A stretch of 64,000 nucleotides of DNA. It comes from an uncultured Gammaproteobacteria bacterium (lineage in GTDB: Bacteria; Patescibacteriota; Microgenomatia; Levybacterales; UBA12049). The notes under the pieces are model-generated. The model was not told the origin of the DNA. It was given only the letters and a program-made list of their open reading frames with translations, and searched no databases. Made by a program: the position numbers and the translations under genes. This document shows, one piece after another, positions 5,803-22,819 of this stretch. Position 1 is the first letter of the stretch, and each line of letters starts with the position of its first letter. The stretch spans positions 199,782 to 263,781 of the forward strand of contig CAZWXQ010000002.1 of the NCBI GenBank assembly GCA_964637955.1. Direction: 5' to 3'.

Positions 5803-6216
5803 TTATTGGTAGTAGTTTGCTGAATTAATACTATTAATAGTTGTATTCACCATTTCTAAGTATTGTTTGATGAATATGATAAATAAGACAGTCGCTATTA
5901 TCGTCACTATTATTGCAAGAGCTCCAATTAGCTTTGCTTTTTTATCTTTATTCTTCAGGTATCTAATTCCAGGAATGAGTCCAAAGGGGGGAAATAAAAA
6001 TGATATAAGAAGTATGCTGATTGTTCCTATGATTGTGAAGTGGTAAGGTGGTTCTTTAATTTTATGTCCACAGTGTGGGCAAAAATAAAATGAAGAATTT
6101 ATTTCACTATGACACCTATTGCAGTGTGTTTGGACTGGGGCGACTTCAGTAGGTGTGTTTTGTAAGATCGTAGTTGGCGGAGTTTGGATCTGTGATGTTT
6201 GGTTATTCTGTTCCAC
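5803..6216 (-). CDS. Zinc-ribbon (CxxC..CxxC) membrane protein, hypothetical
   Basis: CNRCHSE...CPHCGH followed by two predicted TM helices. Confidence 0.35.
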   Translation of the reverse strand: MEQNNQTSQIQTPPTTILQNTPTEVAPVQTHCNRCHSEINSSFYFCPHCGHKIKEPPYHFTIIGTISILLISFLFPPFGLIPGIRYLKNKDKKAKLIGALAIIVTIIATVLFIIFIKQYLEMVNTTINSINSANYYQ

Positions 6217-11886: not shown

Positions 11887-11923
11887 CTTGAAGTTTAATA
11901 AAATGATGTTCATGCTCACATAA

Positions 11924-12742
11924 ATGAGCTTTTTTTTTGACAATTATTTATTATTACCCGGATTTATTTTATTTTTAATTGGTTTATTTTTCGGTTCTTT
12001 TCTTAACGTACTTATTGATAGACTCCCCAATGATGAAAGTATTCTTGGAAGATCGCATTGCGAGAAATGTAATCACACATTAAACTGGAAAGATCTAATT
12101 CCTCTTTTATCCTTTGCTTTTCTAAGTGGTCGCTGCAGATATTGTCATACTTCCCTTTCCTATCAATACCCATTTCTTGAGATATTTACGGGAATCATGT
12201 TTGCAGGAACATTTTTATTTACCATTTATCATATACCATTTACAAATGGTCAATGGTCAATGGTCAATGGTCAATTGCTTTCCTTGGTATATCGTTTAAT
12301 TATAGTAAGCTGTCTCATCGTTATTTTCTTTGCAGATTTAAAATATAAAATAATCCCCGATGAGATTCTTCTGGTTTTAGGCGCAACTATTTTTGTCTGG
12401 TTAATTTTTATGAGCCCGAGTCAGATTATCGTTCATTTGTTCGCAGGTCTGGTATCATTCTTATTCTTTCTCTCAATTTATTTACTCACCAAAGGTCGTG
12501 GAATGGGTTTTGGCGATGTTAAATTCGCTTTCGTTATTGGATTACTTCTGGGGTTTCCTGGTACGCTTTTAGCTTTATACATAGCATTCTTGACAGGAGG
12601 ACTCGTGGGCATCATACTAATTTTATGGAAGAAAAAAAGAATGAAATCCGAGGTGGCTTTCGGTCCTTTTTTGGTAATAGGAACTTTTCTAAGCTTTTTC
12701 TTTTCCCCGGTCCTAATTCCAAGAATTCTCCAATTCTTTTAA
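11924..12742 (+). CDS. pilD: Prepilin peptidase / N-methyltransferase PilD (A24 family)
   Basis: N-terminal CEKCNHTL...CRYCHTSL zinc motif, FGDVKF Asp box, multiple TM segments. Confidence 0.85.
   Translation: MSFFFDNYLLLPGFILFLIGLFFGSFLNVLIDRLPNDESILGRSHCEKCNHTLNWKDLIPLLSFAFLSGRCRYCHTSLSYQYPFLEIFTGIMFAGTFLFTIYHIPFTNGQWSMVNGQLLSLVYRLIIVSCLIVIFFADLKYKIIPDEILLVLGATIFVWLIFMSPSQIIVHLFAGLVSFLFFLSIYLLTKGRGMGFGDVKFAFVIGLLLGFPGTLLALYIAFLTGGLVGIILILWKKKRMKSEVAFGPFLVIGTFLSFFFSPVLIPRILQFF
12245..12272 (+). repeat. Heptanucleotide tandem repeat (AATGGTC)x4 inside the pilD coding sequence
   Basis: acaaatggtcaatggtcaatggtcaatggtcaattg read directly. The unit length is not a multiple of 3. Confidence 0.9.
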
Positions 12743-12748
12743 AATCAA

Positions 12749-13507
12749 ATGTATTATGTCTATGTCTTGCAAAATAAAATTAGATCTCAAATCTATGTAG
12801 GATCTACAAATGATTTGAGACGGAGGCTAGCAGAGCATAATCAAGGAAAAGAGAGATCGACAAAAAGATATATGCCTTGGAAGTTAATTTATTATGAGGC
12901 ATTTAATAGTGAAAGTTTTGCAAGACAAAGAGAAATGAAACTTAAATATAACGGAAATGCTATGAAAGAATTAAAAAAAAGAATTGGACTGGATTTACCC
13001 AGCACCTGTTCATCTGAACTAGAGCATAAAGAGAGCCCTTTGCATAGAGGCTTAGGTGAAAATAATAGATTAATTAAAAAGCCAACAGGTGCTGGATTTA
13101 CTCTCATAGAGCTTCTTGTGGTGATTGGAATAATAGGTGTTCTCTCGGCAGGAGTTATCATTGCGATTGATCCTGTGAAACAAATCCAAAGAGCTCACGA
13201 TAAGCAAAGAATTACTGATTTAAAGCAAATTCAGACTGCTCTAGAGCTTTACAGAGCAGATAATGGTCTTTATCCAGCAAATGTAGATTGTGCTGGGGGT
13301 TTAACTGCAACAGTTGACGGAGATACAGTTACTTATTTAAGTGAGGTACCATGTGATCCTAAAGACAACTCTACTTCTTATCCGTATGTTAGAGCTTCTG
13401 GAAACACATCAGACTATACTTTAACAGCGTGCTTTGAAAGCGATAAAGACTATACAGGGTCAGGATCACCTTGCACTAATTATAAATATGAAGTAACTGC
13501 TCCATAA
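12749..13507 (+). CDS. In-frame fusion of a GIY-YIG nuclease-like domain (aa 1-80) to a prepilin with long leader (alternative start ATG at 12962)
   Basis: N-terminus YVYVLQNKIRSQIYVGSTNDLRRRLAEHNQG...WKLIYYE resembles short GIY-YIG proteins. Then LPSTCSSELEHKESPLHRGL...KKPTGAG|FTLIELLVVIGIIGVLSAG prepilin motif. No stop codon between the two parts. Confidence 0.6.
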   Translation: MYYVYVLQNKIRSQIYVGSTNDLRRRLAEHNQGKERSTKRYMPWKLIYYEAFNSESFARQREMKLKYNGNAMKELKKRIGLDLPSTCSSELEHKESPLHRGLGENNRLIKKPTGAGFTLIELLVVIGIIGVLSAGVIIAIDPVKQIQRAHDKQRITDLKQIQTALELYRADNGLYPANVDCAGGLTATVDGDTVTYLSEVPCDPKDNSTSYPYVRASGNTSDYTLTACFESDKDYTGSGSPCTNYKYEVTAP

Positions 13508-14022: not shown

Positions 14023-14507
14023 AAAAAAAGAATAAAGGTGCGATTCTTATCGAAGCTATTTTGGGAATTACTATAGCTACGATCATAACAACAGGTTTAG
14101 TCACTGCCCTAGTTTCATCTTTAAGTAATTCCACGTTTTCCAGGGGTCAAACTATAGCTACTGGTTATGCTCAAGAGTCAATGGAACTGATTAGAAGTTT
14201 GAAGGATGTCGATTATGGTTCTTTGGAAGACAGTGTTGGGAGTTGTACTGAAGATAATCCTTGTAAATTTGATCTAAGCACAGGAGACGGTAGACTTGTT
14301 TCTGGCGTTGAATCTATCGATGATGATAGTAATATAGAGTTTGACAGATCTGTTGTGTTAAGTAACGTTAGCGACGAATGTCAAGGGTCCGTGTATGCGA
14401 AGGTTACTGTTGCCTGGCAGGATAGTAAATGTAGTGGTAGTGCCAAATGTCATAAAGTTAACCTTAGATCCTGTTTTTCAAATTTAGATTATGCGCCGTT
14501 ACCTTAA
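14019..14507 (+). CDS. Minor pilin (PilV/GspI-like), short leader
   Basis: MKKKNKG|AILIEAILGITIA. Confidence 0.65.
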   Translation: MKKKNKGAILIEAILGITIATIITTGLVTALVSSLSNSTFSRGQTIATGYAQESMELIRSLKDVDYGSLEDSVGSCTEDNPCKFDLSTGDGRLVSGVESIDDDSNIEFDRSVVLSNVSDECQGSVYAKVTVAWQDSKCSGSAKCHKVNLRSCFSNLDYAPLP

Positions 14508-15177
14508 TAAAAATCATAATAAGAGGGATTTACCCAGCACCTGTTTACCAGAGCTGGAGCATGAAGAAAAAGCTTTGCATAGAGGCTTAGATGAAGATAT
14601 TAAATTGGTTAGAAAATCAGCTGGTGCTGGGTTTAGCTTAATTGAGCTACTTGTCGGCATGGCAATTACTGTGACTGCAACCACTATTATACTTGCGATA
14701 GTAATGTCTGCTTTTCGGGTAAGTAGCAAGGCTACGACTGCAGATTTAGCTCGTCAAAACGGAAATTACGCAATGAATAGGATGATTAAGATGATTCAAT
14801 TTGCGGATAGTTATAATGGCAGGAGTACGAGTCTTCTTTCCACAGCGGGTGAAAGTGGTTACCGTGTTAATGATTGTGATGGATCAAATAATACTGCAAT
14901 TAGCATTACATATAAAAATGAAGAAAAGATACTGCAATGTCGAGGGCACAACTCGCTTTACCTCATAGATCCTGTCGATACAACTAAAAATGAACAACTG
15001 ATTCGTACCAGCAGTGTGGCTGTAAGCAATTGTAATATTAGTTGTTTAGAAGTTAGGCCGGGCGCATCCCCTGTTATAACTATAAAATTTGATTTAACAA
15101 TCGGCGAATCCGACGCTGCAATAGAAAAAAGATCGTCGATACCATTTAGAACAAGTGTAAAAATGCGTAATAAATGA
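14491..15177 (+). CDS. Pilin-like protein with 47-aa conserved leader; paralog of the 12749 gene C-terminal part
   Basis: MRRYLNKNHNKRDLPSTCLPELEHEEKALHRGLDEDIKLVRKSAGAG|FSLIELLVGMAI. About 80% nucleotide identity to 12991-13110. Confidence 0.7.
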   Translation: MRRYLNKNHNKRDLPSTCLPELEHEEKALHRGLDEDIKLVRKSAGAGFSLIELLVGMAITVTATTIILAIVMSAFRVSSKATTADLARQNGNYAMNRMIKMIQFADSYNGRSTSLLSTAGESGYRVNDCDGSNNTAISITYKNEEKILQCRGHNSLYLIDPVDTTKNEQLIRTSSVAVSNCNISCLEVRPGASPVITIKFDLTIGESDAAIEKRSSIPFRTSVKMRNK

Positions 15178-16091
15178 GGTGGTTTATTGACACTAGGCAG
15201 CCTAGTTGTTACTCTAAATATATGCCATTTAATGTGAATAGGCGTTTTCGGGATGAATCGGGACAAGTGCTTTTAATAGTAGTTCTTGTGGCTGTTATAT
15301 CTCTCACAGTAGGACTAGCTGCAGTAAGTAGATCTATAACCAATACAAGAGTATCTACGGAAGAATCAAATTCCCAAAAAGCTCTTTCAGCTGCCGAGGC
15401 AGGGCTTGAAGCTCAGATTAATAAAGCAAATGAAAATCCCGATGCTGCTATACCAGAACTTGATAAAAATTTTGATAGCAGTACAGGTTATAAAGCAACC
15501 GTCACTAAAAATACTGACCCACAGATTTTAATTAATAATGCTGAAGTAGATGTATTAAAGACTGAAGGAGCAGACGTTTGGTTGTCTAAATACCCAGATT
15601 TTACTGATCAAAAAAGTCCAAACATCAGTGTTTATTGGAGCGCAAACTCAGGTCCATGCTCAAATGACGCAGCTATAGAAATAGTAATATTAAGAGGAAG
15701 AGATACTACTCCGGCTGCGAAGAATGATCCGATACTTGAGAGATATGCTGTTGATGGGTGTAGTTCAAGACCTGGTGGCGATAATAATTTTGATGATGCA
15801 AGTGCATCAACGGATCGTGGTAGCAGCGTAGCCTCACTTACTCTCAAAGGAAAAAAGTTTGACTATAGATATAATATTCCAAACCAAATTATTAATGGTT
15901 ATATTATGAGAATTATTCCTATTTATAATGACGCAAAAATAGGAGTAAGTAGTGATATACCTCTTCCAGCTCAGGGTTTTGATATAGAATCTGAAGGTAC
16001 TTCTGGAGAAACAAAGCGAAAAGTAAAAGTATTCCAGAGTTTTCCTACTGTTCCTATTGAAATTTTCCCTTATAATTTATTTAACCCATAA
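15174..16091 (+). CDS. PilX-like minor pilin / pilus-associated protein (likely start at internal Met near 15219)
   Basis: ESGQVLLIVVLVAVISLTVGLAAVSRS resembles the PilX N-terminal domain. Confidence 0.5.
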   Translation: MRWFIDTRQPSCYSKYMPFNVNRRFRDESGQVLLIVVLVAVISLTVGLAAVSRSITNTRVSTEESNSQKALSAAEAGLEAQINKANENPDAAIPELDKNFDSSTGYKATVTKNTDPQILINNAEVDVLKTEGADVWLSKYPDFTDQKSPNISVYWSANSGPCSNDAAIEIVILRGRDTTPAAKNDPILERYAVDGCSSRPGGDNNFDDASASTDRGSSVASLTLKGKKFDYRYNIPNQIINGYIMRIIPIYNDAKIGVSSDIPLPAQGFDIESEGTSGETKRKVKVFQSFPTVPIEIFPYNLFNP

Positions 16092-21865: not shown

Positions 21866-22819
21866 ATGTCAGCAGAAACACCTACACCATCTATTCAAGA
21901 AGCTACTCAAGCTCCAGTTAATTCTGGAGAAAATGTGTTGCTTTCATCTCCTGTTCTCCGCCTTTCTGAAGGTATTGTAAAAAGTCGCAGATCAAATGTA
22001 CGAAGAGCTGGAGCTTTTGCCGGCGCTGTTTTAGCAGTTGCAACTCTAGGAAGTTCGCTTAATATTGGAGGACGAGCTAACGCGCAAGGTCCTGATTATG
22101 TTCCACCATCCCCTGCTGCATCATCTGAGCCTATTCCATCTGTAGATCCAAATGGTGAAACTGCACAGGGAGAAGTTCCATGCGAACCAGAAGTAATCCC
22201 AGCAGCTCTTTTTGATCCAGCACCATCAGTAATTCCATCAACTGCACCTGAATCTTTTGCCCCATTACCTTCGGGGGGAGATTTGATTGGTGGAGATTTG
22301 GGAGGAGAAAATTGTACGGTTGCACCAGAAAAGATGCATGCAGCTTTAAATGAAATATTGGATCAAAATGACAAAGATATTAATAAAAATGTTAAGCCAA
22401 AGCAAATAAAGAAAAAGTTTAATCTACTTTGGAATGGTCAAGAGAAAACAAACAAAGAAACAGGAGAAAAAATAATAATTCCAGGCATAAAAGATAAAAT
22501 TGCTGGATATGTTGTGCCTCGTTTTGAAGATCAATCATTGTATGAATATCTATCAAACAATATTGGAGTAGCATTAGATCCCAAGACGGATAAATATAGG
22601 AGAACTGGTTATGGTAGTGATACAATAGGAATCTTGAGTTCAGCGGGGTTTTACTTGTCTGAAGAAGAATATGCACGCGTTATTGAATTTATAGATCCCT
22701 TTTATGATTATGTGGTTACTCACACAGATCCTGGTAATGAAGTTGTTGTTAAAGAATTAATGAAAGAAGCAAGCGTAAAAAGTTTAGATTTTTTCCTCTC
22801 GAAACTTATTCCGCAGTAG
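21866..22819 (+). CDS. Hypothetical secreted/membrane-anchored protein (Pro/Ser-rich linker)
   Basis: 317 aa. Hydrophobic segment AGAFAGAVLAVATLG. No family recognised. Confidence 0.45.
   Translation: MSAETPTPSIQEATQAPVNSGENVLLSSPVLRLSEGIVKSRRSNVRRAGAFAGAVLAVATLGSSLNIGGRANAQGPDYVPPSPAASSEPIPSVDPNGETAQGEVPCEPEVIPAALFDPAPSVIPSTAPESFAPLPSGGDLIGGDLGGENCTVAPEKMHAALNEILDQNDKDINKNVKPKQIKKKFNLLWNGQEKTNKETGEKIIIPGIKDKIAGYVVPRFEDQSLYEYLSNNIGVALDPKTDKYRRTGYGSDTIGILSSAGFYLSEEEYARVIEFIDPFYDYVVTHTDPGNEVVVKELMKEASVKSLDFFLSKLIPQ

Follow-up and report, generated by a model that had tools for sequence, protein, structure and literature searches.

A candidate selfish GIY-YIG nuclease cassette inserted in frame at a prepilin cleavage junction

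The open reading frame (ORF) at 12749–13507 of the window, a 64,000-nucleotide stretch of contig CAZWXQ010000002.1, joins a GIY-YIG nuclease domain in frame to a type IV prepilin. Comparison with an empty site in a related genome identifies the GIY-YIG part as an insertion. The probable explanation is that a selfish, inverted-repeat-bounded GIY-YIG cassette occupies the leader/mature junction of the prepilin and has no stop codon, so that the pilin would be made as a fusion and freed by the prepilin peptidase PilD. Three known kinds of element are joined here, GIY-YIG selfish elements, palindromic repeats and intervening sequences; the way of being tolerated would be conceptually new. Literature searches on GIY-YIG together with pilin, Patescibacteria, inverted repeats or UPF0213 returned no description of GIY-YIG-prepilin fusions.

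The GIY-YIG part of the fusion is an insertion

The ORF (plus strand) starts with ATG and encodes 252 residues with no internal stop. Pfam analysis places GIY-YIG (PF01541) at residues 1–73 (E = 4e-18; 65.9 bits against a cut-off of 22.6), N_methyl (PF07963, above its cut-off) at residues 115–136 and the GspG-type pilin domain T2SSG (PF08334) at residues 144–226. The NCBIfam model TIGR02532 (IV_pilin_GFxxxE) scores 25.4 bits against a cut-off of 16.3, and the prepilin motif is G116/F117-T-L-I-E121, where the slash marks the predicted cleavage site. These matches bear out a preliminary description of the sequence, which had assigned residues 1–80 to a GIY-YIG domain continuing in frame into a canonical G/FTLIE prepilin. 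The pilin part has the G-1, F+1 and E+5 residues of type IV prepilins, a hydrophobic helix at residues 119–139 in the AlphaFold2 (AF2) model and an adjoining A24 peptidase, PilD, but not the short basic leader. Prepilin leaders are usually roughly 5–30 residues long, whereas the leader encoded here has 116 residues including a folded domain.

AF2 predicts two confident domains, at residues 1–80 (predicted local distance difference test, pLDDT, >90) and 117–252 (about 90), with residues 85–114 disordered (pLDDT <50). Foldseek matches the nuclease part to 1zg2 (UPF0213 protein BH0048; 5e-4) and to the Slx1 nuclease domain at 29–36% identity, with I-TevI more distant, and matches the C-terminal part to PulG (1t92). 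A profile search against the PDB gives 1zg2 (E = 4.6e-7), SLX1 (6e-5) and 1ywl (2.5e-4). The domain belongs to the GIY-YIG superfamily (PF01541) and to its UPF0213/YhbQ-Slx1-like branch. Among the 23–24 aligned fusions, Y16, R26, H30, E62 and N70 never vary and Y5 is kept in at least 90%, and the whole catalytic set is intact in the window, where this is the single GIY-YIG copy. The architecture is not that of a homing endonuclease: the 80-residue catalytic domain stands alone, with no DNA-binding module, Rfam intron or Hint domain. The 3' arm of the repeats plus target has no exact match in viral contigs, and phage homing-endonuclease PHROGs give weak matches only, to the N-terminal motif. 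Assignment to a defense system was rejected, the PADLOC matches being marginal (E > 1e-3).

The empty site is in L001, a 443-kb metagenomic contig that has the gene order of the window and a PilC 92% identical to that of the window, and whose orthologous pilin has no nuclease. In a three-way alignment with L001 and the more distant locus L002 (PilC 69% identical), the window has 364 extra nucleotides relative to L001, at 12730–13093 between AATTCT and GGATTTAC. The empty L001 site reads ..CCAAGAATT-CTGGATTTAC-TCTCATAGAA (junction ..AAGAATT/CTGGATTTAC/TCTC). The earlier proposal that the nuclease was inserted upstream of a pilin is therefore upheld by synteny, the orthologous site being empty by exactly 364 nt. 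The native leader in L001 (MEEKKNEIRGGF..NSKNSG/F) shares the final 121 nt of pilD, read in a different frame, and runs directly into G/FTLIELL. L001 PilD ends in ..PRILDLLS and a stop; in the window the PilD tail, LQFF (last four codons plus stop, 12729–12742), comes from the cassette. L002 carries the nuclease at the same site, with a loop of 11 nt instead of 73 nt in the palindromic element behind it. The features of the occupied site, all on the plus strand, are as follows.

11924..12742, + strand: PilD prepilin peptidase (Pfam A24_N_bact, E = 2.5e-30; Peptidase_A24, E = 2.7e-15)
12625..12777, + strand: remnant of the native leader ORF (MEEKKNEIRGGF..NSKNS), severed from the pilin by the insertion (L001 homologue at 6001–6121)
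12729..12740, + strand: inverted repeat 1, left arm TCCAATTCTTTT, beginning at the left insertion boundary; 12 nt, 100% complementary to 12977–12988
12730..13093, + strand: complete insertion, 364 nt, defined against the empty L001 site; boundary ambiguous by 2 nt (CT)
12749..12988, + strand: GIY-YIG nuclease domain, residues 1–80 (Pfam, AF2, Foldseek)
12977..12988, + strand: inverted repeat 1, right arm AAAAGAATTGGA, coding for K-R-I-G (repeat search)
12989..12998, + strand: direct repeat copy 1, CTGGATTTAC, target duplicate; 10/10 identical to 13092–13101
12999..13095, + strand: ORF-less palindromic element with 12-bp arms CCAGCACCTGTT (12999–13010) and AACAGGTGCTGG (13084–13095) and a 73-nt loop
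13092..13101, + strand: direct repeat copy 2, the native target; G116/F117 codons at 13094–13099, predicted PilD cleavage site
13097..13507, + strand: mature pilin, 136 residues, GspG/PilE-like, plus stop codon (T2SSG Pfam, AF2, Foldseek)
14526..14632, + strand: second, nuclease-less palindromic element, arms at 14532–14541 and 14623–14632, in frame in the leader of the minor pilin 14491..15177
Repeat arms written together with the target: GGGTTTAC-CCAGCACC..GGTGCTGG-GTTTAC

The 10-bp direct repeat CTGGATTTAC around the palindromic element is the sequence of the uninterrupted L001 site. The terminal inverted repeats, target duplication and ORF-less derivatives seen here are features of a transposon or miniature inverted-repeat transposable element (MITE). 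No recognized transposase (DDE, HUH, serine or tyrosine) is encoded in the cassette, whose one ORF is GIY-YIG by Pfam. The alternative-frame leader ORF is open in the window, in L001 and in L002 (5877–6029), although PilC identity drops to 69%.

The palindromic element at 12999–13095 translates to the linker, residues ~84–116. About 105 nt of 12991–13100 are shared with the 14491..15177 pilin, with 20/20 identity at GGATTTACCCAGCACCTGTT, and over the aligned element the two window copies are identical at 86 of 108 nt (80%; 0 matches expected by chance). The solo copy at 14526–14632 has a 10-bp inverted repeat. In L001 the orthologue of the 14491 pilin has an ordinary 14-residue leader (MLNYLNKNHKNNK/GFSMIE) and no palindromic element, and the window pilin has a net 33 extra codons. 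Occupied and empty alleles of a conserved target are found at two sites between the window and L001, a comparison between species rather than within a population.

Several observations characterize this shared stretch as a DNA-level element. The 22 differences among 108 positions fall on codon positions in the ratio 7/6/9, and the frame in use is the sole stop-free frame on the coding strand. The peptide read from the 5' arm GGGTTTACCCAGCACCACTTTT differs from gene to gene: GFTQHHF, GLPSTTF or GVYPAPL. The arms covary as pairs, namely CCCAGCACC/GGTGCTGGG, CCCCGCACC/GGTGCGGGG, CCCCTCACC/GGTGAGGGG (giving GEG/F) and CCGAGCACC/GGTGCTCGG; inner stem positions that were not used in hairpin selection are 84–93% Watson-Crick with 3–5 pair types. 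Because three frames are used, arms covary and differences are spread over the codon positions, the stretch is an element of DNA and not a peptide leader. The preliminary description noted a 45-residue leader shared with the 14491 paralogue, but what is shared is inserted palindromic DNA that is absent twice from L001. Its reading of this stretch as the native prepilin leader does not hold, the real native leader being a different sequence, read across the 3' end of pilD. The invariant G-A-G ahead of Phe in the fusions is the translated 3' arm; the uninterrupted pilins of the window and L001 lack G-A-G.

The stem of the palindromic element folds with z = -2.7. Rfam at gathering thresholds finds three tRNAs only in the whole window, with no RNA family in the linker and no intron. 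The 73-nt loop was considered as an internally deleted GIY-YIG ORF and rejected, local alignment being at the level of shuffled sequence (p about 0.4–0.6). A promoter in the loop was likewise rejected: there is one weak 9/12 match at 13039–13066, and the region is poorer in promoter-like sites than its shuffles. No additional copies of the element were found in the window past the two, a cluster of near matches at 22198–22224 not being palindromic.

Recurrence, mobility and selection

The nuclease domain alone was searched against one genome per GTDB species, which gave 507 loci; the analysis covered the best 80 of these plus the window and L002. Protein-level counts refer to the best 120 protein clusters, drawn from NCBI, JGI, ENA and Logan assemblies. 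PF01541 is present in 94 of the 120 clusters (156–437 residues), 52 of which also have a precomputed pilin-domain match, and several others visibly carry GAG/FTLxE. At the level of loci there are 34 in-frame prepilin fusions and 6 cases of a separate downstream pilin (L010, L016, L026, L030, L031 and L048; in L026 the genes meet in an ATGA stop/start overlap). The in-frame excess (34/40) corresponds to P = 2e-11 against a one-third chance, a value overstated so far as loci share ancestry. Relatives with two separate genes had been expected in the preliminary description to speak against the fusion; because they are a minority (6/40), the fusion is not refuted by them.

Nuclease domains that are 48–83% identical are joined to non-orthologous pilins whose mature parts span 114–880 residues, among them major-like, GspH-like and 880-residue minor pilins. 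G114, A115, G116, F117 and E121 are invariant in the 23–24 aligned fusions. The same loci hold 56 uninterrupted pilins, whose leaders are mostly much shorter (typically 3–40 residues), and about 27 pilins with ORF-less hairpin footprints in their leaders. There are 121 distinct repeat pairs with a CACC/GGTG core, and 62 of them, in prepilin genes of other genomes, abut G/FxxxE; in 44 of these 62 pilin-associated elements the 7-nt flanking direct repeats match at 6–7 of 7 positions. Full elements usually lie behind an intact short native leader that ends G-F-T (for example MKKG/FT and MEPQKKG/FT). The element thus sits after the GGNTTYAC of the intact leader, and this target is duplicated. The ORF-less hairpins form a size class with loops of 64–87 nt of unconserved sequence; in the alignment of the ~100-nt hairpin class across genomes (L004 row left out) the arms alone align, and the lineage-specific loops share no sequence or structure. 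In L009, L012, L014, L019, L035 and L071 a native mini-leader ORF (M..G-F-T-Q-H-H-F) often stops about 0–12 nt before the nuclease ATG. This spacing hints at termination-reinitiation coupling as a possible route to fusion translation.

The cassette belongs to a mobile family, and spread within one genome is seen. Loci L027 and L034 come from one metagenome-assembled genome (MAG; CAZFTX01 contigs 10 and 5), and their GIY-YIG ORFs are ~90% identical in DNA and protein. The two cassettes sit on unrelated pilins behind unrelated upstream flanks, in agreement with the earlier attribution of the GIY-YIG module to a mobile family. One of the pair has an extra mini-hairpin, a 42-nt palindromic extension that is a possible snapshot of mini-hairpin origin. 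L002 has two identical 39-nt mini-hairpins in neighboring pilins. At 2111–2265 of L049 a 39-nt 5'-arm unit is repeated four times in tandem in one pilin leader, giving KGFTPHLFSIR four times, which suggests slippage or repeated insertion at a regenerated target. In L016 three paralogous pilins (2025, 3364 and 4820) each lie behind a ~100-nt hairpin and the pilin ORF apparently starts at a TTG in the loop; from this arrangement the hairpin element may supply start or expression signals. Nucleases that are decaying with the frame kept are found in L032, L037, L038, L046 and L054.

Both halves of the fusion are under purifying selection. The ratio of nonsynonymous to synonymous divergence (dN/dS) is 0.18 for the mature pilin between the window and L001 (68% identity), against 0.04–0.28 for neighboring genes, and 0.09 for the mature part of the solo-hairpin pilin (14491) in the same comparison. 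For the nuclease domain between the window and L002 dN/dS is 0.08. Identity between the window and L002 is 82% for the nuclease, 69% for PilC and 54% for the pilin.

Less similar members of the nuclease family are free-standing, with 80–100 residues, their own stop and 12–30-bp inverted repeats of the same CACC/GGTG core. Rfam matches and flanking sequence place them in 23S rRNA (L041, L064, L069, L080, L081 and L076/77/79) and 16S rRNA (L051 and L055). L058 lies inside an RNase P RNA gene, and L043, L056, L063, L065, L070, L073 and L082 lie just 5' of the conserved AGGAAAGTCC in RNase P RNA, at the presumed place of the P3 hairpin; in L065 and L082 ORF-less hairpins are present as well, where P12 would lie. 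The literature searches returned no description of such nuclease elements in RNase P RNA. A hairpin-gene-hairpin layout occurs in L016 and L044. The host of L076/77/79 is an Alteromonadaceae genome, outside the Candidate Phyla Radiation (CPR).

Proposed mechanism and competing explanations

The proposed cassette consists of an ~80-codon UPF0213/Slx1-like GIY-YIG gene, followed in the window by an ORF-less palindromic derivative, and its target would be GGN-TTY-AC at the prepilin junction. The nuclease gene of the fusion sub-family lacks a stop codon, and its 3' arm reads ..K-x-G-A-G in frame with the target Gly-Phe, so the pilin would be reached only through a GIY-YIG-linker-prepilin polyprotein. 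Translation would start at the ATG at 12749, 6 nt past the pilD stop, with coupling to pilD possible. The hydrophobic helix of the pilin would enter the membrane with the N terminus inside the cell, and PilD, encoded just upstream, would cleave after G116 to give a normal mature pilin and set the nuclease and linker free in the cytoplasm. That prepilin peptidase would set free a GIY-YIG fragment in the cytoplasm, as the preliminary description proposed, is the most plausible outcome, in keeping with the topology and with the invariance of G-1, F+1 and E+5. The insertion would then be nearly silent in phenotype, as with an intron or intein, with the host leader peptidase doing the removal. The free nuclease would act on the hairpin or cruciform of the repeats and help the cassette to be copied to further GGN-TTY-AC sites. 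The pilin junction would be preferred alongside RNA hairpins because it is the most conserved DNA among paralogues and additions upstream of it are discarded. Single-chain translation, PilD cleavage, the activity and specificity of the nuclease and the chemistry of mobility are all inferred.

Several points weigh against this mechanism. A 116-residue leader with a folded domain might impair membrane targeting or access of PilD, no Shine-Dalgarno-like sequence lies upstream of the ATG at 12749, and three in-frame codons, the ATGs of M63 and M72 and the TTG at -18, could each start an independent prepilin. The arm TCCAATTCTTTT around the window ORF differs from the canonical arm of the family, and a 12-bp inverted repeat is only moderately improbable in AT-rich DNA. 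The direct repeats are transposon-like and not homing-like, and we know of no strand-transfer chemistry for an ~80-residue GIY-YIG hydrolase without a DNA-binding domain. The distant L002 is occupied and the closer L001 is empty, a pattern that loss and repeated gain both fit, synonymous divergence (dS) being too saturated to date one against the other. The solo copy has the left repeat GGATTTAC of copy 1 and not GGGTTTAG of its own target, which suggests that it arose by gene conversion and not by a fresh insertion; conversion may thus be one of the routes by which the element spreads.

Among the competing explanations, the production of two proteins from one ORF, with the pilin starting internally (ATG at 12962, M72; ATG at 12935, M63; or TTG at -18), is unlikely. 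In-frame starts occur in the window and in most fusions, and the six relatives with separate genes, L026 by its ATGA overlap, fit such a start. No start position is conserved, however. The ATG at 12962, put forward in the preliminary description as the alternative pilin start, does exist as M72, but many homologues have I, L, V, T or K there. L028, L035 and L071 have no ATG, GTG or TTG from domain residue 51 to G-1, a Shine-Dalgarno-like motif is missing at most candidate starts, and the in-frame bias of 34/40 would not be selected if the pilin started by itself. Slightly less likely still is a domesticated bifunctional protein, in which the nuclease is coupled to the pilin, for instance to act on DNA taken up or for activation by PilD, and the palindromes are regulatory. 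CPR bacteria are thought to depend on pili for DNA uptake, which counts in favor of such a role. The nuclease is also catalytically intact, its dN/dS is 0.08 and its identity between the window and L002 exceeds that of PilC (82% against 69%), the fusion gene always lies within pilus gene clusters, and Ssn nucleases affect natural transformation in Neisseria (PMC11893778). Against domestication, the partners are pilins of any kind, orthologous pilins in close relatives lack the cassette, and copies, footprints or decaying remnants occur in several pilins of a genome. Members of the family are also present, with no pilin attached, in hairpins of rRNA and RNase P RNA, and cleavage would leave the nuclease unattached in the cytoplasm.

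Inactivation of the pilin by the insertion, with the open frame a recent accident in a pseudogene in the making, is very unlikely. The native start and leader have indeed been cut off from a pilin that, as one of several copies, could be dispensable; yet the mature part is intact with a dN/dS of 0.18 against 0.04–0.28 for its neighbors, G-1, F+1 and E+5 are invariant across fusions that show a strong in-frame bias, and L002 keeps the same state at the same locus despite saturated dS. There is even less to recommend removal at the RNA level, whether by RNase III at the repeat stem or by a ribosomal hop between the duplicated GGN-TTY codons. Relatives do occupy classic intervening-sequence positions in 23S and 16S rRNA and RNase P RNA, with 12–30-bp stems, duplicated codons resembling take-off and landing sites flank the hairpins, and some native mini-leaders stop straight after the 5' arm. 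However, an mRNA cut without ligation would part the pilin body from any start codon, the stems in the window are 12 bp only, and a ~290-nt hop would be unprecedented. The selection for stop-free, in-frame inserts indicates instead that they are read through by ribosomes. An assembly or sequencing artifact that creates the read-through has a negligible chance of being the cause. The preliminary description had asked for this check, and sequencing error is excluded: a 314-kb contig encodes an identical 252-residue protein, assemblies from NCBI, JGI, ENA and Logan contribute about 100 related, independent fusion clusters, and 34 in-frame fusions occur in different species representatives. The read-through is genuine.

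The cassette with polyprotein processing by PilD leads to a broader proposal of leader-peptide parasitism, for which the chances seem about even: the hairpin-bounded cassette would have prepilin peptidase do its 'splicing' and would rely on translation of the pilin for the expression and release of its nuclease, with RNA hairpins as other havens. Mobile elements within genes are known to hide as self-splicing introns, as inteins and as intervening sequences excised by RNase III; if the proposal is true, the host prepilin peptidase would provide a fourth mode. It would also offer a testable model for the movement of small single-domain GIY-YIG nucleases with palindromic repeats, a question left by the Ssn work, in which a structure-specific Slx1/Ssn-like nuclease would drive a new hairpin-mediated mobility. 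It would account for long pilin leaders in CPR genomes and for the unusual length of many proteins annotated there as 'GIY-YIG nuclease family protein' or 'prepilin'. Prepilin peptidases would be seen to tolerate very large N-terminal cargo, of use in protein engineering, and pilus genes, central to the epibiotic life of CPR bacteria and to DNA uptake, would be linked to active rearrangement of pilin loci.

Gene neighborhood and relation to known systems

The fusion ORF is the fifth gene of a type IV pilus cluster in the order PilT (8931), PilC (10006), major pilin (11329), PilD (11924–12742) and fusion ORF. Downstream are three pilin-like genes, another gene at 15174–16091 and PilM (16095), followed by uncharacterized ORFs where PilN and PilO usually lie. 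A terminator-like hairpin with a T-run at 11914–11929, right behind the major pilin gene and overlapping the pilD start, is consistent with attenuation between the highly expressed major pilin and the downstream genes. The G+C content of the window is 36%, and the relatives recovered are Patescibacteria/CPR MAGs. CPR-type pilin/GIY-YIG loci are titled 'uncultured Gammaproteobacteria' or 'Bdellovibrionales' in L003, L025, L029, L031, L036, L045, L046, L052, L055, L057 and L072, and these MAGs may be mislabeled.

Classical 23S rRNA intervening sequences are cut by RNase III and sit in a peripheral helix of a structured RNA with a long stem, whereas the window copy lies in an mRNA and has 12-bp stems. 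Non-intron insertion sequences with GIY-YIG ORFs in CPR rRNA are credited to Brown 2015 as cited in Tsurumaki et al. 2024 (PMC11270868). The latter authors likewise describe GIY-YIG ORFs in these insertions, with repeats, RNase P sites and pilin sites going unreported there. The rRNA insertions share distant members of the nuclease family, the CACC/GGTG core and insertion-tolerant sites with the elements described here; the difference is that in a pilin, tolerance must come via protein processing and not RNA processing.

The homing endonucleases I-TevI and Seg have in common with the cassette a GIY-YIG fold, a conserved coding target, presence/absence alleles and a degeneration cycle. The cassette differs in having no C-terminal DNA-binding domain, no intron and no viral-contig match, and in having inverted repeats and target duplications, which are not products of homing. 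Inteins with homing endonucleases are likewise selfish nucleases in frame in a host protein with post-translational removal, which here is predicted. The cassette, in contrast, has no Hint or splicing domain, is an N-terminal insert and would be removed by a host peptidase at a pre-existing site.

Hairpin-dependent elements such as IS200/IS605 (for example IS608), REP/RAYT and Correia-type MITEs are also small palindromic units with intragenic copies, ORF-less derivatives that outnumber ORF-bearing ones and a short fixed target ending in TTAC. IS608 inserts 3' of TTAC, and IS200/IS605 elements make no direct target repeats. The enzyme here is GIY-YIG and not HUH or DDE, and the direct target repeats are 7–10 bp.

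By analogy, the nearest characterized counterparts are the Ssn nucleases. SsnA, a 94-residue GIY-YIG protein, cleaves single-stranded DNA beside flanking hairpin repeats, and its authors likened the Ssn layout to an insertion sequence (Chenal et al. 2025; PMC11893778). Ssn-type NTS/dRS3 motifs in the window number 4 against 2.8 expected, with none near the gene, and the repeats here are CCCAGCACC/GGTGCTGGG. Both systems have a single GIY-YIG domain of about 80–95 residues near short palindromic repeats in several copies per genome, and the Neisseria system is tied to competence and pilus biology. The hairpin-gene-hairpin arrangement of Ssn also recurs in L016 and L044. The Ssn repeats are self-contained hairpins of ~28 nt with an ATTCCC..GGGAAT core, mainly in Pseudomonadati, whereas here the two arms usually pair with one another across the gene, which is fused to the coding sequence that serves as target.

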